DNA from: Candidatus Kaiserbacteria bacterium
Lineage (GTDB): Bacteria > Patescibacteriota > Minisyncoccia > Phycocordibacterales > UBA918
Length of the DNA: 56,151 nucleotides
Assembly (NCBI GenBank): GCA_043729945.1
Contig: JAYTKW010000008.1
Coordinates: 1 to 56,151 of the forward strand
Direction: 5' to 3'
Shown: piece after piece, positions 3,747-54,741 of the stretch
How positions within the stretch are numbered: the first letter of the stretch is position 1
How the letters are laid out: every line of letters begins with the position of its first letter
Notes under the pieces: model-generated
Seen by the model: the letters and a program-made list of their open reading frames with translations, nothing else
What the model was told of the DNA's origin: nothing
The model's database searches: none
Position numbers and translations under genes: made by a program

Positions 3747-3867
3747 TCCTCTTTACCAAGAGTTCACCATGAGTGAGTAGTATGAATGAGTACTCAACGT
3801 GAATGCATATAACAGCAGTATGCGGTCTGAGATACACCATTATTTACTTAAGATATAAAAACTAGAA

Positions 3868-3889
3868 AATAAGGGGACAGGCACATTTA
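3868..3889 (+). repeat. Left 22-bp inverted repeat flanking the RAYT-like gene
   Basis: AATAAGGGGACAGGCACATTTA is the reverse complement of 4634..4655 with one mismatch. Confidence 0.8.
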
Positions 3890-3918
3890 ATTCAGAAAAA
3901 GCATGGCATAATTTATCT

Positions 3919-4609
3919 ATGGCACGAGCAGCTCGAGTTGATATCGGTGGTCAGATATACCACGTTATGAATAGGGCTGTTGGCAGATTGCAGATATTTA
4001 ATACCGACGAAGATTATCTCACGTTTCTAAACATCCTTCGTGAAGCTGGTGAAACTAGTGTGGTGGAAGTGCTGGCATATTGTTGCATGCCAAATCATTG
4101 GCATCTCGTACTTCGTACTAAAGCAGATGGTGATCTAGGAAAGTATATGCAGGCTCACCAATGCACATACCCGTTTTGTACATACAAAAACACAAACTGT
4201 TGGAACTGGACCTCTCTACCAGGGAAGATACAAATCATTCATGGTTGACGACGACATACATCTCAAAACGGTTATAAAGTACGTTGAACGAAATGCTGCG
4301 CGGGCAAATCTGGTAGTCAAGCCAGAAGACTGGCGATGGGGGAGTGCTTGGCTGCGTATGAATGGAAACATTAAGCAAAAGAAATTACTGACGGAATTGC
4401 CTTTTGAACAAATTAATTATTTTGTCTGGCTCAATACAATTGACACCGAGAAAGAGTTAGAGCAAATCAGAAACTCAGTAAAGCGCGGAGTGCCATTTGG
4501 TCGTGAGAGGTGGGTTGACGCAATGGTAGAGAGGTACGGACTGGAATCGACCGTGCGTACTAAGGGGAGACCAAAGAAAGGGCAGGTGAAGGTTTTGGCT
4601 AATGAATAA
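3919..4609 (+). pseudogene. REP-associated tyrosine transposase-like (IS200/Y1 HUH family) gene, frameshifted
   Basis: ORF 3919..4248 carries the HUH motif (PNHWHLVL). ORF 4241..4609 carries the YVERNAARANLV..PEDWRWGS tail. Frame +1 from about 4154 reads LTNAHTRFVHTKTQTVGTGPLYQGRYKSFMVDDD and joins the two ORFs, so a 1-2 nt indel lies near 4150-4156. Confidence 0.8.
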
Positions 4610-4633
4610 AATTAGAACACAATTTTTGTAAAA

Positions 4634-4655
4634 TAAATGTGCCTGTCCCTTTATT
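4634..4655 (-). repeat. Right 22-bp inverted repeat flanking the RAYT-like gene
   Basis: TAAATGTGCCTGTCCCTTTATT pairs with 3868..3889. Confidence 0.8.
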
Positions 4656-4681
4656 ATCTATGCCTGTCCCTTTATTATCTA
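4640..4681. repeat. Perfect 21-bp tandem duplication TGCCTGTCCCTTTATTATCTA x2
   Basis: Units 4640..4660 and 4661..4681 are identical. The last CTA of unit 2 is the complement of the relE stop codon. Confidence 0.9.
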
Positions 4682-16694: not shown

Positions 16695-16810
16695 CCAGAT
16701 AACCGCGGTTCACACACATGACGTTTACTTTTGATTTATTCAACAATCAATTAAGGACGTGTATGTATAAATAAAATGAGTACATTTATCATTTATATTA
16801 GTAAATTAAA

Positions 16811-16816
16811 TAATAT
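16811..16816 (+). promoter_or_regulatory. -10 box TAATAT, 7 nt before ATG 16824
   Basis: Supports the 16824 start, which yields a signal peptide. Confidence 0.4.
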
Positions 16817-16823
16817 CCAACTT

Positions 16824-17921
16824 ATGATTAATACATTAAAACAAATTACTGCATCTATTATTGCTGTTGCACTGACAGCCTGGTTAGTTAGTATGCCTGC
16901 CCTGGCCTACGAAAATGACTCGGTAGTGGTAACCAGTAATAATTCGGCTACTATTTCTAATGTGGCTATTTCTTCAGCAAATACGGGGGGTAACACCTCA
17001 CGTGGCGGCCGGGGTGGCCGGGGCGGGGAGGGTGGCGACGGTGGTAGCAATGCCGGTGCCGGCGGGTCAAGTATAAACTCTTCTCCTGGAGGTAGTACTC
17101 AGGAAGCTGGTGATGGCGCCCAAGGTGGTAACGGTGGTAATGCTGAGGGTGACGTTGACGGTATTGACGCACTCCAGCAAGGTGGTGCTGGTGGTAGTGG
17201 TGGTAGTGGTGGTAATACTGGCGCCGGTGGTACGGGGGGTAATAGCGGTACTGGTGGCACTGGCGGTTCTACTGGCGCCGGTGGTCATGGCGGTGATGGC
17301 GCCCAAGGTGGCAATGGTGGTTTGATTGAGACTGGTGAAGCGGTTGTAACATCAGACATTTCTAATGATGTAAACAACAATGACACTACGATCACTCGTG
17401 GCGCATCGTCTACGGCTGACCTTGATGAGACATCTGCTACCTCAACTGGTGATAATCAAGTCACGTTATCAAACGAGGCTGAGGCCACTGCCGATACTGG
17501 TAATAATGAATCGAAGGGTGGTAAAGGTGGTTCAGGTAACGAAGGTGGCGACGGTGGCAACAGTGCTGGTACCGGTGGTACTAGCGAGAACTCCTCTGCT
17601 GGAGGTAGTACTCAGGGGGCTGGTGATGGCGCCCAAGGTGGTAACGGTGGTAATGCTACGTCAACCCCTCCCTCTGAAGTTGATGGCACACAGCTAGCTG
17701 GCAATGGTGGCGCTGGCGGTAATGGTGGCGCTACTGGCGCCGGTGGTGTCGGTGGTAACAGCGGAACAGGCGGGGCTGGTGGTAATACCGGAGTCGGCGG
17801 ATCAGGCGGCAACGGTGCAGCTGGCGGTGAAGGGGGGATTGTACGAACCGGGCGCGCTGATTCATGGAGTAACGTCGTCAATGTTGTTAATCGCAACATT
17901 ACTCGTATCACTAGAAATTAA
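16824..17921 (+). CDS. Secreted glycine-rich repeat protein (GGxGGxGG tracts), internally duplicated
   Basis: Signal peptide ending PALAYE. There are two homologous modules, each of the form ...NTGGN/NTGNN - Gly tract - GSTQxAGDGAQGGNGGNA. The protein ends in a VVNVVNRNITRIT beta-strand-like motif. Confidence 0.8.
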   Translation: MINTLKQITASIIAVALTAWLVSMPALAYENDSVVVTSNNSATISNVAISSANTGGNTSRGGRGGRGGEGGDGGSNAGAGGSSINSSPGGSTQEAGDGAQGGNGGNAEGDVDGIDALQQGGAGGSGGSGGNTGAGGTGGNSGTGGTGGSTGAGGHGGDGAQGGNGGLIETGEAVVTSDISNDVNNNDTTITRGASSTADLDETSATSTGDNQVTLSNEAEATADTGNNESKGGKGGSGNEGGDGGNSAGTGGTSENSSAGGSTQGAGDGAQGGNGGNATSTPPSEVDGTQLAGNGGAGGNGGATGAGGVGGNSGTGGAGGNTGVGGSGGNGAAGGEGGIVRTGRADSWSNVVNVVNRNITRITRN

Positions 17922-17941
17922 GTAGCCTGATTAGGTATACA

Positions 17942-18018
17942 CGGAGTTGGTCTTTTTGCCTTTGTCGAGCAAAAAGACCCTCCGATGAAGACGGGAGTAC
18001 TGTTGGTCTCCTGTCTTC
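17942..18018 (+). other. Two consecutive strong hairpins between the Gly-rich gene and the next gene
   Basis: Hairpin 1 (17942..17984) has CGGAG..GGTCTTTTTGC / GCAAAAAGACC..CTCCG. Hairpin 2 (17987..18018) has GAAGACGGGAG / CTCCTGTCTTC. Neither is followed by a T run. Confidence 0.6.
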
Positions 18019-18057
18019 ACGGAGGGTACATATAAAAATTTCATATCATAAATTATT

Positions 18058-18531
18058 ATGAAAACACAACCTGTTTACTTGCTGGTAACACCGCTCATAC
18101 TGATGATGCTATTTAGTAGTATTTATCAAAAAGCAGAAGCAATCACTATTGTAAATACCGTCAGCGCGGCATCGAACACGGGGGTAAATGGTCAGAACGG
18201 ACAAAACGGACAAGTTGGTACTGATGGTAGTCGAGGACAGGATGGACAGAGTGTTGTAACTGATGTTTCTCACGCCTCGGTATCTGTTAAATCTGTTATC
18301 AACGGGGTAACGGTTATTGATAGTGAGCAAGATGTCTCCGGCACAGGAACACAGTCTGTTGTGATTGACTTGAGTACAACTACCGGTACTACAGATCCAG
18401 TAACAATCTCCATAACGTTGAATAATGAATTACTGACTGCAAACGAGACATTAGAACGACTGAAATTCTGGCAAGATCTACTTACTCGCGCCCGTAATCT
18501 TTTACAGTTATATGTCAGTATGCATTTCTAA
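18058..18531 (+). CDS. Secreted protein with short collagen-like G-x-y tract
   Basis: Signal peptide ending QKAEA, then GVNGQNGQNGQVGTDGSRGQDGQ. It shares the IVNTVSAASNTG motif style with its neighbours. Confidence 0.72.
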   Translation: MKTQPVYLLVTPLILMMLFSSIYQKAEAITIVNTVSAASNTGVNGQNGQNGQVGTDGSRGQDGQSVVTDVSHASVSVKSVINGVTVIDSEQDVSGTGTQSVVIDLSTTTGTTDPVTISITLNNELLTANETLERLKFWQDLLTRARNLLQLYVSMHF

Positions 18532-21355
18532 AGTACAAGCGGGTGTGCGTTGTTTTTGTATAGTAATTTTATTGTTATCAGTATCTCTGGCGCCTTTACC
18601 TTATCAGGTTTTGGCCATGTCGACTGATGGAGTGGGTGGTATAACTGGTGATCAGGGTTTAATTGGTAACGTTACAATTTCGATGAATAGCAGTAATGAC
18701 CTCAATGCAGATACTGACGCAGGTTTAGCGGGGGAAACACTCAGTTCACTTGATACTACTGGTGGAGTAGCGACCAGTAGTGAGGCGACTGTTGTTGTGC
18801 AAACGGGGGACGCCTCCGCGGGGGTCTCGCTTTCAACGGATGTAAATTCTAATGAGGTGCAAAGTGGGTTAGGAACCTCGACCCTATTAGTTGATTTTGA
18901 TACATACGTCCTGACTGCGTCGAGGACTAATGATGCGGTGGTCATGAACTCAGCTATAGTAGCAGCGCTGACAGGAGATAATATAGCTGAATCAGCCAAT
19001 GAAGTGGTAATAGGTACGGGGAATGTGCTGGCGGTCGCCAATATTGCGAACGTGGTTAATACGAACGTCATCAACTCAAACGGTTTTATGTCACTATTGA
19101 ACCAAGTGATTGACAGTATGTCCTCATGGAATCTACAAGATTTATTTTTTCCCGGCGGTGCGGCGTCAGTCCCGGATGCGCACATATGTACGTTAATGTC
19201 ATGTGCGGCCGAAGACGTGACGTATACTATTTCAAATACTAATACGGGAGAGGTGACAAATATGGTCAATCTAGATGCTGTGAGTGGACAAAATATCGGA
19301 GTGGGAGACGTGGTGGTGATTGATACAGGGGACGCGTATGCGGCGGCCAATGTTATCACTATTGCAAATAGTAATATTATTGATTCCAATTACCGTCTCC
19401 TGACTGTTAACGGTATTGGTACCTTAAACGGAGATTTGGTGCTGCCAACAGGAGCCCTTTTTAAAGCATTCTATGGATTATCAAATGGTATGAATCAGGT
19501 TGAAGATGAGACTGATGTAAAAATTACTGATGTAAATGTGAACAACGCAAGTATCGATAATGCACTCGCTACGTATGCTGAATCTGGTTTAAACGATGTG
19601 ATCACAACAGTGCACGGTGCTACAAAGACGGGTACCAGCTCAGCTCATTCCAATGTGGTGAACGAGGTAAATAAAAATCTCTTTGGAGGTGATTCATTGT
19701 ATTTGTTGATTCGGGTGCATGGGGCGTGGAATGGCAACGTTTTTGGTTTGCCTGAGGGTTTGTCATGGGTAGAGTCTGCGGAGGGAATTGTCATTTACAA
19801 TACGGATGCTGAGATTGTCCCGTCAGAAATACTCAACTATGATGTGGATACTTATAAAGCAGATTTTTCAAATAACAACACCATTGCAATTAACAATGAT
19901 CTAAATATAAATGCCGTCACTGGAAAAAATAATCTTGACGCTAGCCTGGGAACTGTAAATACTGGTGACGCTTATGCGGGGGCAAATGTGATGAATATCG
20001 CGAATACGAATGTAATAGGTCGTAATTGGATTATGGCAATTATGAATATTTTTGGTGACTTTAACGGTAACGTTTCATTTGGTCAGCCGGATTTGTGGGT
20101 TGGAGGTGAAGTACAGTCGATGGCGACACCCGTTGGTCCTGGTGCAAAGGTAGTCTATACTTTTACCGTCAAAAATAATGGTGACCTGACAGCGACTGAT
20201 GTAACTTTACATAATGAGCTACTAGGTGCCCGAATTACTTACCGGGGCGGTGCGGGCGAACAGCGCGAAGCGCGTACTCGGGATGAATTGATTGGTACCT
20301 TACTACCTGGCGAAACTAAGTTGGTATCGTTTGATGCGTATGTTGATGATACATTGCCGGTTGGTATCACCCCAGTCTTGGTCAAGGCTGGGCTAGCGCT
20401 TCGTGAATCCGATCGAAACCAAGTCAATAATCATGAGCTGGTGACACTCAACGCTGAGTACGCCCTGCCGGTGGTAATTGGTGGCAGTAGTGGCGGTTCT
20501 TCTGGTGGTGGTAGCAACAGCAGCACATCAGGAAATAGTTCTTCAGGTGGTGGAGGAGGGTCTAATCGTGCTTCGTCCGGTAAGTTACTCAGCAAAACAG
20601 CCGTGGTATCTAAAGTAAAAGTTGATAAGAAGGCGCCTCCAAAAATTTCTGTGACAAAAACAGCCAACGTTAAATCCACTGAAATTGTAAAAGCAGGTCA
20701 AGAAGTGATTTACGTAGTGGTGGTAACTAACGATGGAGGCATAGCCTATGATGCAAAAGTATCTGATCAGCTCTTGAACCCAATTGGCTCTGTGGTCAGT
20801 GAACAATCTTGGGACTTAGGCACCATTGGTGCTGGTGAAAAAATTAACCTCACCTATACCGTTAGTTACGCCTCTACGACTCCGAGTGGTGTGTACACGA
20901 ATACTGCTCGAGTTACTGCTAATCGCCTCTTAGCTAATGGAACAAAATCACCGCTCTCCATAAAGTCCGCCGTGTATACCGTGATGATGAGTGGTCAAGC
21001 TCAGTCTGTTGGTAATGTCGGCATCACTATGTTCGCGCCGATTGGGACGAGTCAGTCTGCTGCCATCCTGGCTTGGGAGACGATTCAGCCAACAGATGGT
21101 CAAGTGTTTTTTGGACCCGCTGGTACGGGTACTAGCTCACCGTACAGTCCGTACCTAGCAAATTATGGATACGCACAAGCCAGTTATCGTTCGCCACTCC
21201 TAACCACTAAACACTTTATTGTGTTGACAGGCCTGAGAGATGGTGTGGCATATAACTATCGCTTGCGATCGGTAAATGAAACTGGTGAAATTATTAGTAC
21301 ACAATATTCGTTTGTGGTACCGACTGATGCTTCTTTGGCACTACAGTTGCATTAA
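18512..21355 (+). CDS. Large exported surface protein: N-terminal TGDAxAxANVxNxANxNVI repeats, two DUF11-like domains, Gly/Ser linker, C-terminal FN3-like domain
   Basis: 947 aa. The repeats include TGNVLAVANIANVVNTNVI, TGDAYAAANVITIANSNII and TGDAYAGANVMNIANTNVI. DUF11-like strands are VVYTFTVKNNGDLTATDVTL and VIYVVVVTNDGGIAYDAKV. The FN3-like tail reads ILAWETIQPTDGQVFFG...YNYRLRSVNETGE. Confidence 0.85.
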   Translation: MSVCISKVQAGVRCFCIVILLLSVSLAPLPYQVLAMSTDGVGGITGDQGLIGNVTISMNSSNDLNADTDAGLAGETLSSLDTTGGVATSSEATVVVQTGDASAGVSLSTDVNSNEVQSGLGTSTLLVDFDTYVLTASRTNDAVVMNSAIVAALTGDNIAESANEVVIGTGNVLAVANIANVVNTNVINSNGFMSLLNQVIDSMSSWNLQDLFFPGGAASVPDAHICTLMSCAAEDVTYTISNTNTGEVTNMVNLDAVSGQNIGVGDVVVIDTGDAYAAANVITIANSNIIDSNYRLLTVNGIGTLNGDLVLPTGALFKAFYGLSNGMNQVEDETDVKITDVNVNNASIDNALATYAESGLNDVITTVHGATKTGTSSAHSNVVNEVNKNLFGGDSLYLLIRVHGAWNGNVFGLPEGLSWVESAEGIVIYNTDAEIVPSEILNYDVDTYKADFSNNNTIAINNDLNINAVTGKNNLDASLGTVNTGDAYAGANVMNIANTNVIGRNWIMAIMNIFGDFNGNVSFGQPDLWVGGEVQSMATPVGPGAKVVYTFTVKNNGDLTATDVTLHNELLGARITYRGGAGEQREARTRDELIGTLLPGETKLVSFDAYVDDTLPVGITPVLVKAGLALRESDRNQVNNHELVTLNAEYALPVVIGGSSGGSSGGGSNSSTSGNSSSGGGGGSNRASSGKLLSKTAVVSKVKVDKKAPPKISVTKTANVKSTEIVKAGQEVIYVVVVTNDGGIAYDAKVSDQLLNPIGSVVSEQSWDLGTIGAGEKINLTYTVSYASTTPSGVYTNTARVTANRLLANGTKSPLSIKSAVYTVMMSGQAQSVGNVGITMFAPIGTSQSAAILAWETIQPTDGQVFFGPAGTGTSSPYSPYLANYGYAQASYRSPLLTTKHFIVLTGLRDGVAYNYRLRSVNETGEIISTQYSFVVPTDASLALQLH

Positions 21356-32281: not shown

Positions 32282-33562
32282 ATGCGAACCACTAAGAATA
32301 TCATTGCCTTTGTTGGCGGGATTAAACCTAATTCACTTGAGGCAATTCGCGAGTATGGCAAAAAAAATGGAGTCAAATACCAGATAATGTTGATTCAAGA
32401 CAAGCGGCATGAACGAAAAAATGAGGAACCGAGTACCCGTATTCCCCAACAAGACATTACAGTGCAGGTAGATTTCTCTAAACCGGAAAAGATTACCGAA
32501 GCCCTCTTGCCATACGAGGACTCATTGTTGGCGATTTCCTGTCGGAGCGAAGTGCATATTGCCCGCTTTGCAAAAATTATTCCCTGTGTACCGTATTTAC
32601 GTACACCAACGAGTGAGTCACTGACGTGGGCCACTGATAAATATGAGATGCGCAAACGATTTAAACTGTACGATCCGAAAATTACCCCATCCTTTACTCG
32701 CGTCAAAGATACTACGGCTGGTGAACGACAACGACTGATTACCAAAATTGGGTTTCCCATGATTATTAAACCGGCTAATCTCTCGGGTAGTTTGTTTGTG
32801 AGTATTTGTTATCACGAAGAAGATTTAAAAAAAGACCTTGCGACCTGTTTTCGTAAACTTCGCAAAGCCTATGAAAGCGATAAGCGTCTGGAAGAGCCCA
32901 AAGTAATTGCCGAACAATACATGGAAGGAGATATCTATTCGATTGATAGTTATGTCAATTCGCGCGGGTCGGTATATCACTTGCCACTAGTGCGGGTAAA
33001 GACGGGGAAAGACATTGGACACCAAGATTTCTATGGCTATCTGCAAATGACTCCAACTATTTTAAAACGCGAAACGATTAAGCGCGCTGAGGCTGTTACC
33101 GAAACGGCGATCCATGCGCTCGGATTACGGAGTACTACCGCCCACACGGAACTCATGAAGATTGACGGCGAGTTCAAAGTAATCGAGGTCGGACCTCGTA
33201 CCGGTGGGGCGCGTGATGTACTGTATAAACTCAGTTGTGGTATTGAGCATTATCTCAATGACGTGCTAATTCGGATGCCGAAAAAGCCAATCATACCTAA
33301 AAAATGTAACGGGAACGCTGTCTATATGAAATGGTTTTTACCAAAAGAGGGAATCATCGCCTCGATGACCGGTATCAAGAAAATAGAACAATTAGAATCA
33401 TTTTATAAAATTGAAGTGAATAAAAAAATTGGCGACCGGGCGACGTTTGCGCGTAGTGGTGGGCGGTCAGTGTTTAATCTCTATATGTATAACGCTGATC
33501 GGGGACAGTTGTTGGCTGATATACGGAGAGTCGAACAGTTGGTAAAAATTAAGCTTCGGTAG
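32282..33562 (+). CDS. ATP-grasp domain protein (carboxylate-amine ligase class)
   Basis: GFPMIIKPANLSGS, EQYMEGDIYSIDSY and KVIEVGPRTGG are ATP-grasp signatures. Confidence 0.83.
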   Translation: MRTTKNIIAFVGGIKPNSLEAIREYGKKNGVKYQIMLIQDKRHERKNEEPSTRIPQQDITVQVDFSKPEKITEALLPYEDSLLAISCRSEVHIARFAKIIPCVPYLRTPTSESLTWATDKYEMRKRFKLYDPKITPSFTRVKDTTAGERQRLITKIGFPMIIKPANLSGSLFVSICYHEEDLKKDLATCFRKLRKAYESDKRLEEPKVIAEQYMEGDIYSIDSYVNSRGSVYHLPLVRVKTGKDIGHQDFYGYLQMTPTILKRETIKRAEAVTETAIHALGLRSTTAHTELMKIDGEFKVIEVGPRTGGARDVLYKLSCGIEHYLNDVLIRMPKKPIIPKKCNGNAVYMKWFLPKEGIIASMTGIKKIEQLESFYKIEVNKKIGDRATFARSGGRSVFNLYMYNADRGQLLADIRRVEQLVKIKLR

Positions 33563-33565
33563 AGA

Positions 33566-33686
33566 GGAACGCCAAAAATCGCGAATTCCTGCGTTACGCT
33601 ACAGTAATTTTCGTTCACCGTACAAAAAGTACGGCTCACGCTAATTACTTTGCGTGCCTTGAACTCCATCGATTTTATGACGTTCC
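33566..33686 (+). repeat. Extended-hairpin 3'-UTR element, copy A (121 nt)
   Basis: Outer stem GGAACGcCAAAAATCG / CGATTTTaTGaCGTTCC, middle stem AGTAATT / AATTACT, and apical hairpin CACCGTAC-AAAAA-GTACGGCTCAC. It starts 4 nt after the ATP-grasp stop codon. Confidence 0.8.
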
Positions 33687-33721: not shown

Positions 33722-33769
33722 ACGAGGCAAGACCTCGGACTTTTATGTGAGGACGAGGTCTTGCCTCGT
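33722..33769 (+). other. Perfect 16-bp inverted repeat hairpin
   Basis: ACGAGGCAAGACCTCG - 16 nt - CGAGGTCTTGCCTCGT. An A run precedes it, and no T run follows on the plus strand. Confidence 0.6.
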
Positions 33770-37285: not shown

Positions 37286-38269
37286 ATGGCGGCTTGGATT
37301 TTACTGGCAACGGCCGGACAATTTGTGAATGCCATTGTGGCGTTCTTGGACAAATATATCGTGTCTGATGAAACGGCGTTGCCAAAACCGTTTATCTACG
37401 CGTTTTACTCGTGTCTGCTTACTGGTGGGTGGATTGTAATTTATTTGATTGGATTTGTGCCGGGGTTGAGTACCCTTGGTGTACCACATTTAGCCAATGT
37501 ACACACCCCGTCGATTCAAGTAGTGGCAATGGCGTTTTTGTCCGCCTATACTTTTTTTATGGCGCTGGTATCGATGTATTCGGCCTTGCGTAGCGCCGAG
37601 GCGGTGAATGTGATGCCGGTCATTGGGGTAATTTCGGCGATTTCCTCACTCGGAATGGTGTATTTGTTCCTGGACGTAGTGCTCGAACCAAATTTTATTT
37701 GGGGGATTGTGGTATTGTCTCTCGGCACGCTCTTGGTAGCACAAACCCTACCGCACATTGATACCGTAATCCATGTCATTCATAGTGGAGTATTTTTTGC
37801 TCTCCATTTCATTACCATGAAAGGACTCTTTCAAGAAACTAGTTTTGATGATGGGTTCTTTTGGTCGAGGATTTGTTTTGTGTTGTTTGCTCTATCATTG
37901 TTACTAGTTCCTACGTACTATAAAAAGATCCGTGAACAAACAGGACTTACTACTAAAAAAACCGGGGCGCTGGTACTTGTGACAAAGATCCTGGCGGGTG
38001 TTGGTGCCTTTATGATTTTGAAAGCCACCGACATGGGGGATGTGGCCGTAGTGCAGGCGCTTGATGGGGTCAAATTTGTATTTATTTTACTGATTACAAT
38101 TTTCTTTGGGGCGTTATTACCGGATAGCGCAGTCGAACATGTGACCAAACCAAGCGAAGTCATGCGGCGGGTGCTGTATGTGCTCGTGATTGCGGCGGGC
38201 TATTTCATCCTGTTTGGTAGTGTCGATTATTTATATCTTTTTACCCAAGTCTATGCGCCGATTACGTAA
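37286..38269 (+). CDS. Polytopic membrane protein (about 10 TM, DMT/EamA-like impression)
   Basis: 327-aa hydrophobic ORF between two glycosidase genes. Confidence 0.78.
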   Translation: MAAWILLATAGQFVNAIVAFLDKYIVSDETALPKPFIYAFYSCLLTGGWIVIYLIGFVPGLSTLGVPHLANVHTPSIQVVAMAFLSAYTFFMALVSMYSALRSAEAVNVMPVIGVISAISSLGMVYLFLDVVLEPNFIWGIVVLSLGTLLVAQTLPHIDTVIHVIHSGVFFALHFITMKGLFQETSFDDGFFWSRICFVLFALSLLLVPTYYKKIREQTGLTTKKTGALVLVTKILAGVGAFMILKATDMGDVAVVQALDGVKFVFILLITIFFGALLPDSAVEHVTKPSEVMRRVLYVLVIAAGYFILFGSVDYLYLFTQVYAPIT

Positions 38270-39260
38270 AATTTTATACTGGATACTGGGTATTCTCGTG
38301 CTGCTGGGCCTTACAGTGGCGTGGCTGGCGTATAAGCCGGTACCTGAGCAGATTACCTACGGTATGTCGTTTAATACCGTCTATGCCCGGGAGCTGGGGC
38401 TCGACTGGAAAGAAACCTACGATGCGATTTTGCATGATCTGGGGGTGCGTAACCTGAGACTAGCTGCCCACTGGCCAATGGTTGAACCAGCCCGTGACAC
38501 CTATAATTTTGAGGAGCTTGATTACCAGATATCTGAAGCCGAGAAAGCAGGTGCCACCATTGTGCTAGCCGTGGGCAGACGTTTGCCCCGGTGGCCTGAA
38601 TGCCACATTCCTACCTGGGCCCGCGAAGAGAGTTGGGACGACCAGAAAATTCAATTACGTGAGTATATCACCGCCGTTGTCGAGCGGTACAAAAATAGCC
38701 CGGCTATTAATTACTGGCAGGTCGAGAATGAGCCGTACCTAGCGTTGTTTGCCTTTGAGCACTGTGGAGCGCTCGATGAAGATTTTTTGAAAGAAGAAAT
38801 TGCCTTGGTACATGAGCTTGATCCCAGCAGGCGAGTGCTCGTGACCGACAGTGGAAATTTAGGAACCTGGGCTGGAGCCTATCGTAACGGGGACGCGTTT
38901 GGCACGAGCGTGTATGTGCATTTTTGGAATCCCGAGTTAGGTCAGTTCAAAACATTTCTCCCGCCCTGGTTTTATCGTGCTAAAGAAAAAGTCATCGCTT
39001 TGCGATACGGCGAGAAACCGACGTTTTTGATTGAGCTATCAGCTGAACCATGGCTGGTTGAGCCGGTAGTCAATGTTCCAATAGATATCCAGTACACTCG
39101 AATGGATGTTGCAAAATTTAATGAAATTTTAGACTATGCCCGCCATACTAGGTTCGATCAACAATATCTATGGGGGGCCGAATGGTGGTATTGGCTGAAG
39201 CAACAGAACGAGCCGGCAATGTGGGATAGAGGTAAAGAACTATACGACACAAGTAAATAA
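38253..39260 (+). CDS. Membrane-anchored clan GH-A (TIM-barrel, GH5/GH42-like) glycoside hydrolase
   Basis: The ATG at 38253 gives a TM anchor. RLAAHWPMVEP is present, as is the acid/base motif WQVENEPYL. Confidence 0.78.
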   Translation: MRRLRKILYWILGILVLLGLTVAWLAYKPVPEQITYGMSFNTVYARELGLDWKETYDAILHDLGVRNLRLAAHWPMVEPARDTYNFEELDYQISEAEKAGATIVLAVGRRLPRWPECHIPTWAREESWDDQKIQLREYITAVVERYKNSPAINYWQVENEPYLALFAFEHCGALDEDFLKEEIALVHELDPSRRVLVTDSGNLGTWAGAYRNGDAFGTSVYVHFWNPELGQFKTFLPPWFYRAKEKVIALRYGEKPTFLIELSAEPWLVEPVVNVPIDIQYTRMDVAKFNEILDYARHTRFDQQYLWGAEWWYWLKQQNEPAMWDRGKELYDTSK

Positions 39261-39261
39261 A

Positions 39262-39377
39262 ACTTCCAAAAATTGCACATCGCGTTGTTGTCCTGCAAAA
39301 AAATATCATTCACCTTACAGTGGTAAGGCTCAAGTTATTTTTCTAGTACGCCTAGCGCTGTATCAATTTTAGAAAGT
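39262..39377 (+). repeat. Extended-hairpin 3'-UTR element, copy C1 (116 nt)
   Basis: Outer stem ACTTCCAAAAATTG / CAATTTTAGAAAGT, middle stem AAAAATA / TATTTTT, and apical hairpin CACCTTAC-AGTG-GTAAGGCTCA. It starts 2 nt after the stop codon. Confidence 0.78.
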
Positions 39378-39488
39378 CTCTTCGAAATCCTTTCAGTGTT
39401 CTCCGTCGAAAAATAATGTGCACCTTACAGTAAGTAAGGCTCACCTTATTTTACTTTTCCCCCTATCTCAGCATCTATTTTATGAAAG
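39378..39488 (+). repeat. Extended-hairpin 3'-UTR element, copy C2 (about 111 nt), abutting C1
   Basis: Outer stem CTCTTCGAAAT / ATTTTATGAAAG, middle stem AAAATAA / TTATTTT, and apical hairpin CACCTTAC-AGTAA-GTAAGGCTCAC. Confidence 0.72.
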
Positions 39489-39630
39489 TCTATTGGTTAC
39501 TTGCAACTCCTGTAAAGTGACTTTGAAAGTCAATCGTATAGGTCCTATATTAAATATGTAAGCTTTAGGTGGTGTTGATAGTTTGTTTTTTATGATTTTT
39601 GAGTTGATACACTGTGATTGATACTTTCTT

Positions 39631-46424: not shown

Positions 46425-46492
46425 CGTTTTCTCCTATGTTTTCATAGTATATGATTACTATAAAAAACATAAAAGTGCAAGCATCCCCAGCC

Positions 46493-46526
46493 AAAAACCC
46501 CAGAGCCGTAAGGCTGTGGGGTTTTT
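46493..46526 (-). terminator. Bidirectional intrinsic terminator downstream of rnj and element D
   Basis: AAAAACCCCAGAGCC-GTAA-GGCTGTGGGGTTTTT. Confidence 0.78.
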
Positions 46527-46592
46527 GGTTTTCGTTTCAACAAGTGATGAATCTGTTTTAGAAATGCGCTCGTTTTACTAGAGCCACGCCAA

Positions 46593-46710
46593 CTGCTGCA
46601 GAAAATCTGCTAGTACGAGGCGGCAAGGAGGAAATACGTGAGCCGTACTTTTGTACGGTAAACGTATTTCTGACGCGGACAACGAAGTAATCGCTGATTT
46701 TATGCAGCAG
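46593..46710 (-). repeat. Extended-hairpin 3'-UTR element, copy D (118 nt, minus strand)
   Basis: Read on the minus strand: outer stem CTGCTGCATAAAATC / GATTTTCTGCAGCAG, middle stem GAAATACGT / ACGTATTTC, and apical hairpin ACCGTAC-AAAA-GTACGGCTCAC. It starts 5 nt after the rnj stop codon. Confidence 0.8.
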
Positions 46711-46714
46711 TGTG

Positions 46715-48793
46715 TTATAAGCCGATAAGGACTGGGATGACCATTGGAGATTTCTGAGTCCGCTGCATCAAAAACTGACTCACAATATCTGTTAGTTCGT
46801 CTTTGACGTAATCGAGATCAAGCGGGTTCATTTTCTCGGTATATTTTTCAATAGTTTTCTTGATCAATACACGTGCTTCGGAGAGGAGTAATTGATTCTC
46901 ACGGAGGTAAATAAAACCGCGGGAAATGATGTCTGGTGATTTGCGTAATTTACCAGTTTTGGCGTTGACGGTTGCAATAATGACGAACATACCGTCTTGA
47001 GAGAGAGACATACGATCACGCAAAACGACTTCTTGGCGCGCACCAACGGTAAAGCCATCGACGACCACCATCTCTGTTGGAATCTTGGTCTTGTGGCGGA
47101 TGATTTCGGTACCGTTTTTAATATCGATGATAGTACCGTTATCTGGCACTACTACATTTTCCTTAGGGAAGCCGTTTTCAACCGCTGCAAACATGTGGCT
47201 CTTGAGGTGGTAGTGGTGGCCGTGGACGGGGATGAGGAATTTTGGTTTGATAGTTTGATGTACCCAGACCAGTTCACCCGCGTTACCATGTCCTGAGGCG
47301 TGGACGTGTGAACCTTGGAAGTTTACGACTTTGACGTTCCGTCGGTAAATATTGTCTTTGAGTTTCTGGACAGCAATTTCATTACCGGGAATAACCGATG
47401 ACGACAACACTATCGTATCCCGTTCGTTGAGGATAATTTGTTTGTGTTTATCCTGAGCCATCCGCATGAGGGCGGCGAACTCTTCACCCTGGGCCCCAGT
47501 AGAGAGGATGACAATTTGGTCTGCTGGGTAATTTGGGATGTCGCCGGCACTAATGAACGTTTGTGGTTTAGCGACCAGCATTTTAGCCTGGATAGCAATT
47601 TCAATAGCGACTTTGATACTCCGTCCTTCCATCACGACTTTTTTACCCAATGCTTCACAGACATTAATCACACCAATGAGGCGGTCAAATTGTGAGGCAA
47701 AGGTACCGATAATCATACGACCTTTGGTAGTGCGAATAATCTCTTCGAGGGTGAGGAACACTTTGGCTTCTGACACCGAGAAACCGCTGCGGTCAGCGTT
47801 GGTTGAATCACAAATTAGAACTAGGTTGTTGTGAGTACCAACTTCTTCCCAGGATTTTTTTTCTTCGACTACAACTTCGCCGTTTACGTTATTGAGTTTA
47901 ATGTCTCCGGTCACCACAACGTCACCGTGTTTAGTTTCGATGGCGAGACCCATAGCGTCAGGAATCGAGTGGGTGACAGGAAATGTCCGGATGCGGGTAC
48001 TGCCGACCGTAAAAGCCTCACCCTCTTTGACAACATGAATATCAACCGGCTCCATGTGCGGGAACTCTTCTTGACGTTTGAGAATCATCAGTGAGGTCAG
48101 GTATTGGGTGTAGATTGGTGGGTTACCGAGGCGCTCCATCACAAATGGGATACCACCGATGTGGTCGAGGTGGCCGTGGGTGACCACGAGTGCGCGGATT
48201 TTATCTTTGCGCTCTTCGAGGTACTGTGTATTTGGCAAAATGTACTGGATACCCGGCGCGTTGCTCTCTTCGGATACAAATTGGAAACCAGCATCGATAA
48301 CAATGATGTCAGCGGCTGTTTCAACGATAATCATGTTACGGCCAATTTCTTCTACACCAGATACCGGAATGATACGAACCGTGTCCAGGTCCGTGATGGT
48401 TGGCAATATCGGATTTTTCTCATCGGTGACGGTCATCCGGTGGGTGAGAGCGGGGCTCGTCATCGGCCGACGACCATTACCGCCGCCATTTCGTTTGCGA
48501 TTATTGTTACGTCCACCACGCTTGGCAGGTGCTGTGCCTGTGCCTGCGGACGCAGCAGCGCTGTCAGTTGGTCTCCTCGCGGGAGTGTGAGGTAATCTGC
48601 GGGCTGGTGCTTGGTGTAATCCGGCGCCAGTACGTGGCGCAGATGATTGGCCTGGTCGAGAGCCCTGGGGTCTACTACCACGATTAAAAGGGCGACGTTG
48701 TGGTCGAGCTTGATTGAGGTTGGTGGATGTTGTGGTCGGGACAGGATTTGCGGGTGCGGTGGGTTGGTGCGGCTGTGATTGTGGTGTGTTCAT
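46715..48793 (-). CDS. rnj: Ribonuclease J with about 130-aa Arg/Gly/Pro-rich disordered N-terminal extension
   Basis: The metallo-beta-lactamase motif VTHGHLDHIGG, a beta-CASP region and a conserved C-terminal domain. The N-terminus is rich in RGG/RRP/NNRKRNGGG. Confidence 0.95.
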   Translation of the reverse strand: MNTPQSQPHQPTAPANPVPTTTSTNLNQARPQRRPFNRGSRPQGSRPGQSSAPRTGAGLHQAPARRLPHTPARRPTDSAAASAGTGTAPAKRGGRNNNRKRNGGGNGRRPMTSPALTHRMTVTDEKNPILPTITDLDTVRIIPVSGVEEIGRNMIIVETAADIIVIDAGFQFVSEESNAPGIQYILPNTQYLEERKDKIRALVVTHGHLDHIGGIPFVMERLGNPPIYTQYLTSLMILKRQEEFPHMEPVDIHVVKEGEAFTVGSTRIRTFPVTHSIPDAMGLAIETKHGDVVVTGDIKLNNVNGEVVVEEKKSWEEVGTHNNLVLICDSTNADRSGFSVSEAKVFLTLEEIIRTTKGRMIIGTFASQFDRLIGVINVCEALGKKVVMEGRSIKVAIEIAIQAKMLVAKPQTFISAGDIPNYPADQIVILSTGAQGEEFAALMRMAQDKHKQIILNERDTIVLSSSVIPGNEIAVQKLKDNIYRRNVKVVNFQGSHVHASGHGNAGELVWVHQTIKPKFLIPVHGHHYHLKSHMFAAVENGFPKENVVVPDNGTIIDIKNGTEIIRHKTKIPTEMVVVDGFTVGARQEVVLRDRMSLSQDGMFVIIATVNAKTGKLRKSPDIISRGFIYLRENQLLLSEARVLIKKTIEKYTEKMNPLDLDYVKDELTDIVSQFLMQRTQKSPMVIPVLIGL

Positions 48794-52167: not shown

Positions 52168-53821
<1,654 letters not shown>

Positions 53822-53823
<2 letters not shown>

Positions 53824-53942
53824 AAGCTTAAAATCGGCCAGCTACTTTGTTGCACTGCAGAAATTTACCATCACCCTACAGTAAGTAGGGCTCACGTAAA
53901 TTTCATTGTGCGCCTCGTATCTGTCTCGATTTATAGACTTTT
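53822..53942 (+). repeat. Extended-hairpin 3'-UTR element, copy E1 (121 nt)
   Basis: Outer stem AAAAGCTTAAAATCG / CGATTTATAGACTTTT, middle stem GAAATTTAC / GTAAATTTC, and apical hairpin CACCCTAC-AGTAA-GTAGGGCTCAC. It overlaps the groEL stop codon. Confidence 0.82.
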
Positions 53943-53958
53943 AACTAAAAATAAAACA

Positions 53959-54077
53959 GAACGGTAAAATCACTGCATCTGCTTCGTTAGCCTTCAGAAA
54001 ATTATTCTCAACGTACAGAAAGTACGTCTCGAAAAATTTTCCTCGTCCGCCTCGCAGCTACAGCAATTTAACCATTC
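53959..54077 (+). repeat. Extended-hairpin 3'-UTR element, copy E2 (119 nt)
   Basis: Outer stem GAACGGTAAAATCACTG / CAGCAATTTAACCATTC (imperfect), middle stem GAAAATT / AATTTTC, and apical hairpin CAACGTAC-AGAAA-GTACGTCTC. Confidence 0.78.
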
Positions 54078-54105
54078 TTATCTACTCTTCATTAAGATAA
54101 AAACA

Positions 54106-54132
54106 GAAAAAGAGCCTGGCGGCTCTTTTTCT
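54106..54132 (+). terminator. Intrinsic terminator of the groESL transcript, downstream of E1/E2
   Basis: AAAAAGAGCC-TGGC-GGCTCTTTTTCTTT. Confidence 0.82.
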
Positions 54133-54258
54133 TTGTTCGTCTTTGCTTAATTGTAAGTGTGGCAATCCACGTTGTGTATTTTGTAAAATAAAATAAGCGC
54201 AGACCATTATAGTCCGCGCCTAGTTAACTGTTTCTTACGTGAGTCCTGATAGTTATCC

Positions 54259-54627
54259 TTATTTTTTATACTGCCTCACCCCATCGTTATCTCTCAATAA
54301 TTGTTCTAAGGTAGGTATTCTATAACCTGCCCCATATAGTGTTTGGATAAAAGAAAAACCAGCTGCTTGATCCTTAAATAGTTTATTCCTGATTCTTTTA
54401 ATATGTGAGGGGATAGAATCTAGCGAAGTCTTTGGATAATCGTTCTCAGATAGGGCACTCCTAAGTTGATCAATGCTACAAAATTTACCTTGTCGCTCCA
54501 TCAATTTCTCAAGCAATAAGAATTCACCTTTTGTGATCTTGCATACGTTGCTAAATACCCTTACTTCAAACTTTTCTCTATCCAAACAAACCCCTAAACA
54601 GTATAGTGTGCTTGTGTCTAAGACCAT
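54259..54627 (-). CDS. Stand-alone OmpR/PhoB-type winged-helix DNA-binding protein (no receiver domain)
   Basis: LTKGEFLLLEKLMERQGKFCSIDQL......D...SLDSIPSHIKRIRNKL......FIQTLYGAGYRI. The ATG at 54627 has GAGGAG 7 nt upstream. The ORF-track start at 54690 is a TTG. Confidence 0.75.
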   Translation of the reverse strand: MVLDTSTLYCLGVCLDREKFEVRVFSNVCKITKGEFLLLEKLMERQGKFCSIDQLRSALSENDYPKTSLDSIPSHIKRIRNKLFKDQAAGFSFIQTLYGAGYRIPTLEQLLRDNDGVRQYKK

Positions 54628-54741
54628 CCCGAATCTCCTCAAAGGCCTATGTTTAGTCAAAATATACGCTTCTGGTAGTGAGCTTGTCAAATGTGGGATT
54701 ATGTTATACTAGATACACTTAATTAGTAAGTTTTATATTTT

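Follow-up and report, generated by a model that had tools for sequence, protein, structure and literature searches.

The 56,151-nucleotide contig JAYTKW010000008.1 of a Candidatus Kaiserbacteria genome (assembly GCA_043729945.1), called the window here, carries a groEL gene that is followed by two tandem hairpin elements (copies E1 and E2) and then by an intrinsic terminator. Six such elements of about 119 nt, all of one architecture, lie in the window: the groEL pair, a second tandem pair after a gene for a GH42-like glycosidase, and single copies after the genes for RNase J and an ATP-grasp ligase (Table 1). A preliminary description of this DNA had reported six copies of near-constant length and had placed the groEL pair between the stop codon and the terminator. 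Both points held. A covariance model built from the six window copies (R1) recovered exactly these copies from the window, at 88-112 bits, and E1 overlaps the TAA stop codon of groEL upstream of the terminator at 54105-54132. The next-best match (18.5 bits) is the RNase J terminator, and a candidate seventh copy at 46455-46567 was rejected as a match to this same terminator. At all four loci, the element starts 0-4 nt past the stop codon of a co-oriented gene. A further copy in the same genome lies just outside the end of the window, 2 nt after a DUF2207 gene. The family to which these elements belong is real, large, and apparently undescribed.

The window copies have a mean column identity of 67% in alignment, and three blocks stand out as conserved: C-T-n-C-t-T-y-G-T-T-G on the 5' side, the apex TCACC-GTAC-(4-5 nt)-GTAC-GGCTCA, and C-G-C-C-T-n-G on the 3' side. 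Folding gives a long single hairpin for every copy, with sense-strand z-scores of -2.3 to -6.7. The weakest of the six is the degenerate second copy of the GH42 pair, which folds weakly on either strand and is missed at default filters by the refined model R2 (below). Separate canonical terminators follow the copies at the RNase J and groEL loci, and a weak terminator-like hairpin (33723-33737) lies 3' of the ATP-grasp copy. Since the copies lie between stop codons and terminators, they should be co-transcribed as parts of 3' untranslated regions (UTRs). Near groEL, the convergent response-regulator-like gene is directly followed by a second strong terminator, on the minus strand at 54194-54222.

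The six copies from which the family was first described make up a small part of it. An apical-motif scan of one genome per species (185,579 species) gave at least 114 stretches, and the later counts rest on the matches listed. These come mostly from metagenome-assembled genomes (MAGs) of the candidate phyla radiation (CPR), among them Kaiser-, Paceibacter-, Sacchari-, Nomura-, Zambryskii-, Lloyd-, Vogel-, Yanofsky-, and Doudnabacteria. With R1, the first 80 loci yielded 93 full-length copies, and a covariance model refined after R1 (R2) found at least 140 full-length copies in 51 Patescibacteria (CPR) assemblies, nearly all of them 117-121 nt long. Scanning other genomes with such a model had been suggested in the preliminary description, and further copies were indeed obtained. 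Matches are almost entirely confined to MAGs labelled Patescibacteria or unclassified "bacterium"; the non-CPR pattern matches listed gave no model match, save one weak one (42.7 bits) in a MAG labelled Spirochaetales (L094; L-numbers are labels of fetched loci or stretches). Some CPR genomes hold one copy per 4-10 kb.

The element is an imperfect palindrome of about 119 nt that consists of a basal helix, an asymmetric internal loop, a middle helix, and an apex. The basal helix ends in 5'-RRAC...GTYY-3'. Both sides of the internal loop are conserved (CtTyGTTG on the 5' side and CGCCTnG on the 3' side), the middle helix is A/T-rich, and the apex has the conserved form TCAC-CGTAC-loop-GTACG-GCTC. 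In the R1 alignment of 93 copies from other genomes, 78.5% of the cells of a 44-pair full-length hairpin are paired, compared with 57% in shuffles and 33-41% in slid controls of the same alignment, and double changes occur at 43 of the 44 pairs. Because the 27 outer pairs were absent from the R1 structure, the alignment was not fitted to them. The conserved internal loops and covarying stems of the preliminary description are thus borne out. Being small, non-coding, and multi-copy (119 nt, at least 140 copies), with inverted-repeat ends, the elements resemble miniature inverted-repeat transposable elements (MITEs). Three overlong copies of about 190-200 nt carry extra sequence near the apex (L049:7368-7567, L020:2951-3138, and L060:3272-3461), and in the one from L049 a structured insert of about 80 nt splits the apical hairpin. 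Orphan half-elements were also seen at L017:4345-4394 and L058:2793-2836, in one case an extra 3' arm that immediately follows a full copy and in the other a 5' arm standing alone.

No described RNA class had been recognised in the motif, and none was found. A search of Rfam (4227 models, both strands) gave no family at the gathering threshold for the element, and an E-value scan of positions 53780-54160 gave no relevant match. The sole Rfam match in the window is a tRNA gene at 28-98. No such repeat family seems to have been described for CPR, as nothing was found in Rfam or in literature searches aimed at CPR. TIGR-Tas arrays, which were met in the literature, were rejected as a candidate, their architecture and context being different.

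The position of the copies is closely tied to stop codons. In 101 of 141 copies (92 clear and 9 ambiguous), the 5' edge of the element coincides with the end of an open reading frame (ORF) of at least 60 codons; the mirror arrangement alone, in which an ORF on the opposite strand terminates at the 3' edge, is seen in 2 copies only. This is the tabulation that had been proposed as a check. Crude ORF calls place a co-oriented neighbour upstream of 113 copies and an opposed one upstream of 15. Stop codon and element are mostly -11 to +8 nt apart, and the downstream distance is 20-600 nt; the offset of the stop codon peaks at -7 to -2, with a minor peak within the element at +6 to +8. The basal helix is typically 3-5 bp longer than in the model, with the stop codon paired to its complement (TAG/CTA, TAA/TTA, or TGA/TCA), and its 5' half is made up of the stop codon and the following 12 nt or so. 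The few copies of opposite orientation are found about 18-37 nt beyond a stop codon.

This orientation follows the gene and not replication, because 17 of 92 stop-adjacent copies, the RNase J window copy among them, lie on the locally C-rich strand. An orientation set by replication was rejected on this ground, and also because, between convergent genes, it is the co-oriented one that the element adjoins. An association with specific genes was likewise rejected, since the upstream genes represent 124 Pfam families across 93 genes that are unrelated and mostly housekeeping. They include SecY, S10, S7, EF-Tu, BacA, IF3, MreB, and FtsA, and with ribosomal-protein genes among them, several copies lie within ribosomal-protein operons.

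The two strands of the element differ strongly in folding. The mRNA-sense strand had been taken as the folded one, a view that the energies reverse: in 131 of 132 copies, the complement folds better, by 15 kcal/mol on average (mean -52.6 vs -37.6 kcal/mol for the mRNA strand). Aligned in sense, the copies show more A.C mismatches (419) than G.U pairs (181, one conserved U.G not counted), and the remaining mismatches are mostly C.U. Read on the complement, A.C and C.U turn into G.U and G.A, non-canonical pairs that are characteristic of folded single strands. At pair 17:103, for example, 57 copies have C.A, 29 have T-A, and 13 have C-G, and the apex of the complement (UGAG-CCGUAC...GUACGG-UGAA) contains tandem G.A pairs. 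A mutational bias was rejected as the source of the A.C excess, as the expected bias, an enrichment of G and T on the sense strand (the GC skew of the window is positive), runs in the opposite direction. The asymmetry amounts to 15.6 kcal/mol in stop-adjacent copies and 13.0 kcal/mol in all others; being found in both, it is intrinsic to the family. We read each element as having one strong-folding and one weak-folding strand, and, on our reading, the only insertions to persist at stop codons are those that place the weak strand in the mRNA.

Comparison of related genomes revealed turnover of the copies. Flank mapping identified filled and empty orthologous sites (L005 and L032 vs L029; L045, L049, and L067 vs L042), that is, the presence/absence polymorphism characteristic of MITEs. 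Copy number also differs at one site, with one copy vs two in L068 and L073. At an orthologous Kaiserbacteria site, the copy is inverted: L067 has it in sense, 8 nt after the stop codon (3962-4081), L045 (1646-1765) and L049 (7368-7567) have it in antisense, about 20 nt after the stop codon, and L042 lacks it. EF-Tu is followed by a copy in two lineages and by none in two others. The same holds close to the window genome, in relatives (L119-L122) whose GroEL proteins are 89-95% identical. Copy E1 is present in L121, rearranged in L120, decayed in L119, and absent from L122, and E2 is absent from L121 and L122, kept only as a 5' half in L120, and not detected in L119. At the RNase J locus, L120 has the copy, L119 has a decayed one, and L122 has none; in L121, the locus is not syntenic in the fetched stretch. 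L121 has six copies in 21.6 kb, and L122 has none.

Sequence exchange and copying can also be traced. In some orthologous pairs, the basal stems are kept, and the middle helix and apex are wholly different (L045:457 vs L049:6233; window 53822-53942 vs L121:11649-11767); the apex of the E1 ortholog in L121 matches window copy E2, not E1. Stems that are kept around a replaced interior suggest gene conversion between copies. A few genomes hold pairs of copies at unrelated loci with a variable-column identity of 0.78-0.85, and some subfamilies are common to several genomes. In the E1 ortholog of L120 (11661-11821), the apex has become a perfect palindrome (GAACCTCACCGTAC-GTTT-GTACGGTGAGGTTC) that is followed by an insert of about 40 nt, and it looks as if one arm had been "corrected" against the other by template switching.

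The ends of the elements suggest insertion at TA dinucleotides. TA...TA is the commonest dinucleotide flank of the terminal helix (37 of 140 copies, followed by AT with 21 and AA with 14), numerous clean TA[R...Y]TA cases were seen, and the filled and empty sites of L005/L032 and L029 are consistent with insertion at TA. Stop codons of the TGA type are depleted beside the elements, with 3 of 101 compared to 112 of 509 elsewhere (p = 5e-7). At groEL, one TA precedes E1 at 53821-53822 (bases one and two of the TAA stop codon) and another follows it at 53942-53943; the next base is A, which places a second TAA directly 3' of the element. This TA-element-TA-A pattern is the expected product of insertion into the TA of the original TAA stop codon. 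As the first base of the element is a purine, TA plus R would restore a TAA or TAG stop codon, and the rebuilt stop codon would leave the protein intact. A basal stem derived from the target flank was rejected, since the empty site of L029 has neither half. Taken together, the TA data favour, short of proof, an element that probably inserts at TA, presumably with duplication of the TA. The preliminary description had argued for a functional structured RNA and against recently copied repeats. That contrast is not borne out, as the behaviour of mobile repeats is seen in the presence/absence, inversion, tandem duplication, and decay at orthologous sites, in the near-identical copies at unrelated loci in some genomes, in the shared subfamilies, in the TGA depletion, and in the TA...TA flanks.

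A known repeat with much of this organisation is ERIC (enterobacterial repetitive intergenic consensus), a co-transcribed 127-bp MITE with TA termini and TA duplication (PMC2229807, PMC2759123). ERIC elements were compared with the CPR family using a chromosomal copy (L118), the published E. coli consensus (PMC2759123, Table 1a), and eight plasmid-borne copies, which together represent six genera. At 127 nt for ERIC and 119 nt plus TA flanks (about 123) for the CPR family, both are imperfect hairpins over their whole length with the same order of parts. The 5' loop is GCGTTGG in ERIC and yGTTG in the CPR family, in the same order and orientation; the apex is TCAC-TTAC...GTAAG-CTC and TCAC-CGTAC...GTACG-GCTC, respectively; and the 3' loop is TTGCCGCCTTG in ERIC and CGCCTnG in the CPR family, with an exact CTTGCCGCCT in the RNase J copy. 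R2 matches eight of nine ERIC copies over their full length and in one orientation, with 16-34 bits and rough E-values of 5e-8 to 0.013. In the reverse direction, a covariance model from nine ERIC copies (R3) was run on the whole window, and its best match is the RNase J copy (46591-46712, 28.1 bits, rough E-value 8.4e-5). Four further window copies are in the top ten of R3, at 10.5-11.7 bits, all on the correct strand.

ERIC also shares the asymmetry of the strands. The strand aligned in sense is the weaker one in eight of nine copies, with means of -49.2 vs -59.9 kcal/mol; to our knowledge, this asymmetry has not been stated before in energetic terms. In the sampled copies (L118, L123-L130), it amounts to 10-16 kcal/mol, and in this small sample, the weak strand lies in the mRNA when the element abuts a stop codon. 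Of the sampled ERIC copies, the three that lie no more than 12 nt from a stop codon (after ybhI, potI, and an ABC-transporter gene) are oriented like the CPR sense copies, and those at 20 nt or more point the other way. De Gregorio and colleagues reportedly noted in 2005 that stop-adjacent ERICs prefer one orientation. ERIC and the CPR family are alike in having an intergenic location, a better-folding complement, the weak strand in the mRNA at stop codons, and, for about one quarter of the CPR copies, TA at the ends. These reciprocal model matches in one orientation, together with the shared strand asymmetry and stop orientation, go beyond the conceptual analogy that had been granted to ERIC, and the family is probably distantly related to it. 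For ERIC, orientation is described as crucial (PMC2229807), and its effect on the upstream mRNA is orientation- and ribosome-dependent (PMC2229807, PMC2759123). ERIC is intergenic and co-transcribed (PMC2229807), as the CPR family is expected to be.

The CPR family is nevertheless not ERIC sensu stricto, as the core is not conserved, the hosts belong to another phylum, and the sequence-only similarity is not significant. The central ERIC core GTGAATCCCCAGGAGCTTACATAAGTAAGTGACTGGGGTGAGCG shows 100% identity in all 5,426 E. coli genomes. The window copies have neither this GTGAATCCCCAGGAGCTTACATAAGTAAGTGACTGGGGTGAGCG core nor the CCCCAG-CTGGGG helix, and have only the apex frame TCAC..TAC...GTA..CTC in common with ERIC. 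The G+C-rich CCCCAG/CTGGGG helix of ERIC has an A/T-rich counterpart in the CPR family, whose termini are much more variable and whose copies are mostly far more diverged from one another. ERIC (also ERIC/IRU/RU-1) occurs in Enterobacterales and Vibrionaceae, whereas the CPR family occurs in Patescibacteria. Moreover, RNase E, which has been invoked for ERIC, may be missing from these genomes, in which RNase J is present.

Other small repeats offer partial parallels. Correia/NEMIS elements of Neisseria and RUP of Streptococcus pneumoniae are MITEs of about 100-155 bp with TA flanks and long RNA hairpins that are abundant, co-transcribed, and able to affect mRNA processing (PMC2229807). Compared by description, without any sequence or model similarity being noticed, they are small, TA-flanked, intergenic hairpins like the CPR family, but have well-conserved terminal inverted repeats, and RUP has a candidate IS630-type partner. 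REP/BIME and REPIN sequences are likewise extragenic palindromes at the 3' ends of genes and can stabilise upstream mRNA. We know of no stop-codon or single-orientation rule for Correia/NEMIS or RUP. For REPs, Liang, Rudd and Deutscher reportedly found in 2015 that interference with the terminating ribosome occurs when the element is no more than about 15 nt from a stop codon. REPs differ from the CPR family in being 20-40 nt long with a GTAG or CGTC head (PMC3733652), in lacking TA flanks, and in their mobilisation by RAYT. The CPR elements also bear comparison to the attC sites of integrons. Such sites are imperfect palindromes of 57-141 nt directly after stop codons; their structure is more conserved than their sequence, and the bottom strand is the folded, active one. 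The CPR family is attC-like in its placement after stop codons and in a bottom strand that folds best, and differs in its conserved apex and housekeeping upstream genes. No cassette arrays or intI were seen, nor any attC RYYYAAC/GTTRRRY cores, although the cores were not formally searched.

The features of the window that bear on the elements are collected in Table 1. The contig is present in three ENA metagenome samples. Two other repeat-bearing regions were seen in the window. Two neighbouring ORFs of 381 aa and 947 aa at 16776-21355 abound in glycine-rich GGxGG-type DNA repeats, which include 117-128-nt units that recur about 515 nt apart (repeat families D1-D4). An inverted repeat of 52 nt (79% complementary, 3863-3914 and 4609-4660) surrounds overlapping small ORFs at 3919-4248 and 4241-4609, and this ORF pair could be a small cassette, e.g., a toxin-antitoxin pair, or a mobile unit.

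Table 1. Hairpin elements, host genes, and terminators in the window. R1 and R2 are covariance-model scores in bits; fold energies are for RNA, in kcal/mol.
Feature	Position	Strand	R1	R2	Fold, sense	Fold, complement	Remarks
ATP-grasp ligase gene	32282-33562	+					Pfam; TAG stop 33560-33562
ATP-grasp copy	33566-33686	+	112.1	91.2	-40.2	-56.2	3-4 nt past TAG
GH42-like glycosidase gene	38190-39260	+					Pfam; TAA stop 39258-39260
GH42 first tandem copy	39260-39378	+	102.7	91.8			Overlaps TAA stop
GH42 second tandem copy	39378-39489	+	87.6				Degenerate; 5' outer stem partly deleted
RNase J intrinsic terminator hairpin	46494-46530	-					CCAAAAACCCCACAGCC...GGCTCTGGGGTTTTTGG; downstream of RNase J copy
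RNase J copy	46593-46710	-	96.3	79.3	-42.2	-54.2	4 nt past RNase J stop, gene orientation
RNase J gene	46715-48793	-					Stop codon 46717-46715
groEL	52180-53823	+					Pfam Cpn60_TCP1, E 1.4e-64
groEL stop TAA	53821-53823	+					Paired into basal helix of copy E1
groEL copy E1 with flanks	53821-53943	+	109.9	101.9	-36.5	-46.0	Element proper 53823-53941
groEL copy E2	53959-54077	+	109.5	105.6	-25.6	-52.4	Second of tandem
Bidirectional intrinsic terminator	54105-54132	both					12-bp stem, A-run before, T-run after; downstream of E1 and E2
Convergent response-regulator-like gene	54259-54690						Pfam Trans_reg_C; shares terminator 54105-54132 with groEL

We consider it likely that these elements are an ERIC-type, non-autonomous miniature mobile repeat (MITE-like) that is widespread in Patescibacteria (CPR). 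They are best filed as a new repeat family within the known ERIC-type kind, and not as a new class of structured RNA. Several observations weigh against this reading. Most copies are old, as the variable-column identity within genomes (0.43) is close to that between genomes (0.39), and orthologous copies persist at about 70% flank identity; the persistence of old copies fits selective retention as well as mobility. No autonomous partner (5' arm-ORF-3' arm) was found in about 1 Mb of loci, a sample that was chosen for intact apices, so that this negative carries little weight. TA flanks occur in only about one quarter of the copies, and because TA is self-complementary, a duplicated TA is inseparable from a 2-bp extension of the helix. 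The outer 10 bp or so vary widely among copies, which is unusual for inverted repeats bound by a transposase. The tie to ERIC is open to objection as well, since nhmmer finds no match between the two families and a sequence-only profile alignment gives z = 1.2, with 39 of 400 shuffles scoring as high. A link by sequence only was accordingly rejected, and detection needs structure in the model; the relationship is a remote one that rests on sequence and structure scored together.

The same retention of orthologous copies would suit a dedicated cis-regulatory RNA of the mRNA-sense strand, that is, a 3' UTR element selected in place and not mobile, such as a hairpin that binds a protein or stabilises the mRNA. 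Core motifs conserved phylum-wide, a constant length, strong covariation, the strict stop-codon position and sense orientation, and the location upstream of terminators also speak for such an RNA. We find it improbable, however, because the mRNA strand is the one that folds worse and its mismatches are A.C and C.U instead of G.U and G.A. Gain, loss, inversion, and decay among close relatives, at groEL included, likewise argue against selection in place, as do the absence of a tie to particular genes, the recent copies at unrelated loci in some genomes, and the resemblance to a known MITE. The strand energies lead to a different proposal, in which the active form is the folded complement, either as single-stranded DNA for an HUH enzyme (RAYT, IS200/IS605-like) or a tyrosine recombinase, or as an antisense RNA. 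The complement is 13-16 kcal/mol more stable in any context, and its G.U and G.A mismatches, the tandem G.A pairs of its apex, and the attC-like placement would agree with this. An antisense RNA gene was rejected, since comparison of flanks gave no conserved promoter-like motif at a fixed distance on the antisense side of the copies, and many copies lie in ribosomal-protein operons, where antisense transcription is unlikely. Against a DNA form, TA flanks are not part of HUH transposition, the heads of REPs and the attC R''/R' cores and cassette arrays were not seen, with the limit on cores given above, and no integrase or RAYT was seen nearby, protein content not having been searched systematically. 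ERIC, moreover, shares the asymmetry and yet is regarded as a TA-duplicating MITE, and we give an active complement little credence. Chance or compositional likeness of ordinary terminator-like hairpins would account for the A/T-rich stems only. It is already refuted by the R1 matches in the window and in other genomes and by the covariation of the stems; match scores of 88-116 bits with E-values down to 1e-30, the conserved non-palindromic motifs, and the separate canonical terminators that follow the copies all speak against it.

Persisting copies are found almost only at a stop codon and upstream of a terminator, with the weak strand in the mRNA and the strong strand on the template. By analogy to ERIC in Yersinia, a terminating ribosome would hold the weak mRNA hairpin open, and this opening would couple 3'-end protection or nuclease access to translation. 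Plausibly, a weak hairpin with the stop codon in its base may in this way couple the fate of the mRNA 3' end to translation termination. Copies in the other orientation, about 18-37 nt past the stop codon, would lie where a strong hairpin can stay folded. A bolder version is possible but doubtful in our view: the elements may be more than selfish DNA and may have been domesticated as a phylum-wide module at the stop codon that translation gates. The terminating ribosome, by opening the weak mRNA hairpin, would set 3'-end protection or nuclease access (RNase J or Y) for much of the housekeeping mRNA of CPR bacteria, and ERIC and the CPR family would be branches of an ancient cross-phylum superfamily whose conserved asymmetric loops bind a protein.

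CPR genomes are small and poorly understood, and with a copy every 4-10 kb in some of them, the family matters for the annotation, binning, and assembly of MAGs. About 100 copies to 2 obey one rule, namely that the stop codon is paired within the basal helix and the mRNA carries the weak strand; as this rule also appears in ERIC, hairpin repeats beside stop codons may be under a general constraint. If true, the link between ERIC of Gammaproteobacteria and the CPR family would extend a classic repeat family across phyla. The CPR family would also provide a much larger and more diverse alignment in which the loop-binding partner and the mobilising enzyme of ERIC-type elements may be sought.

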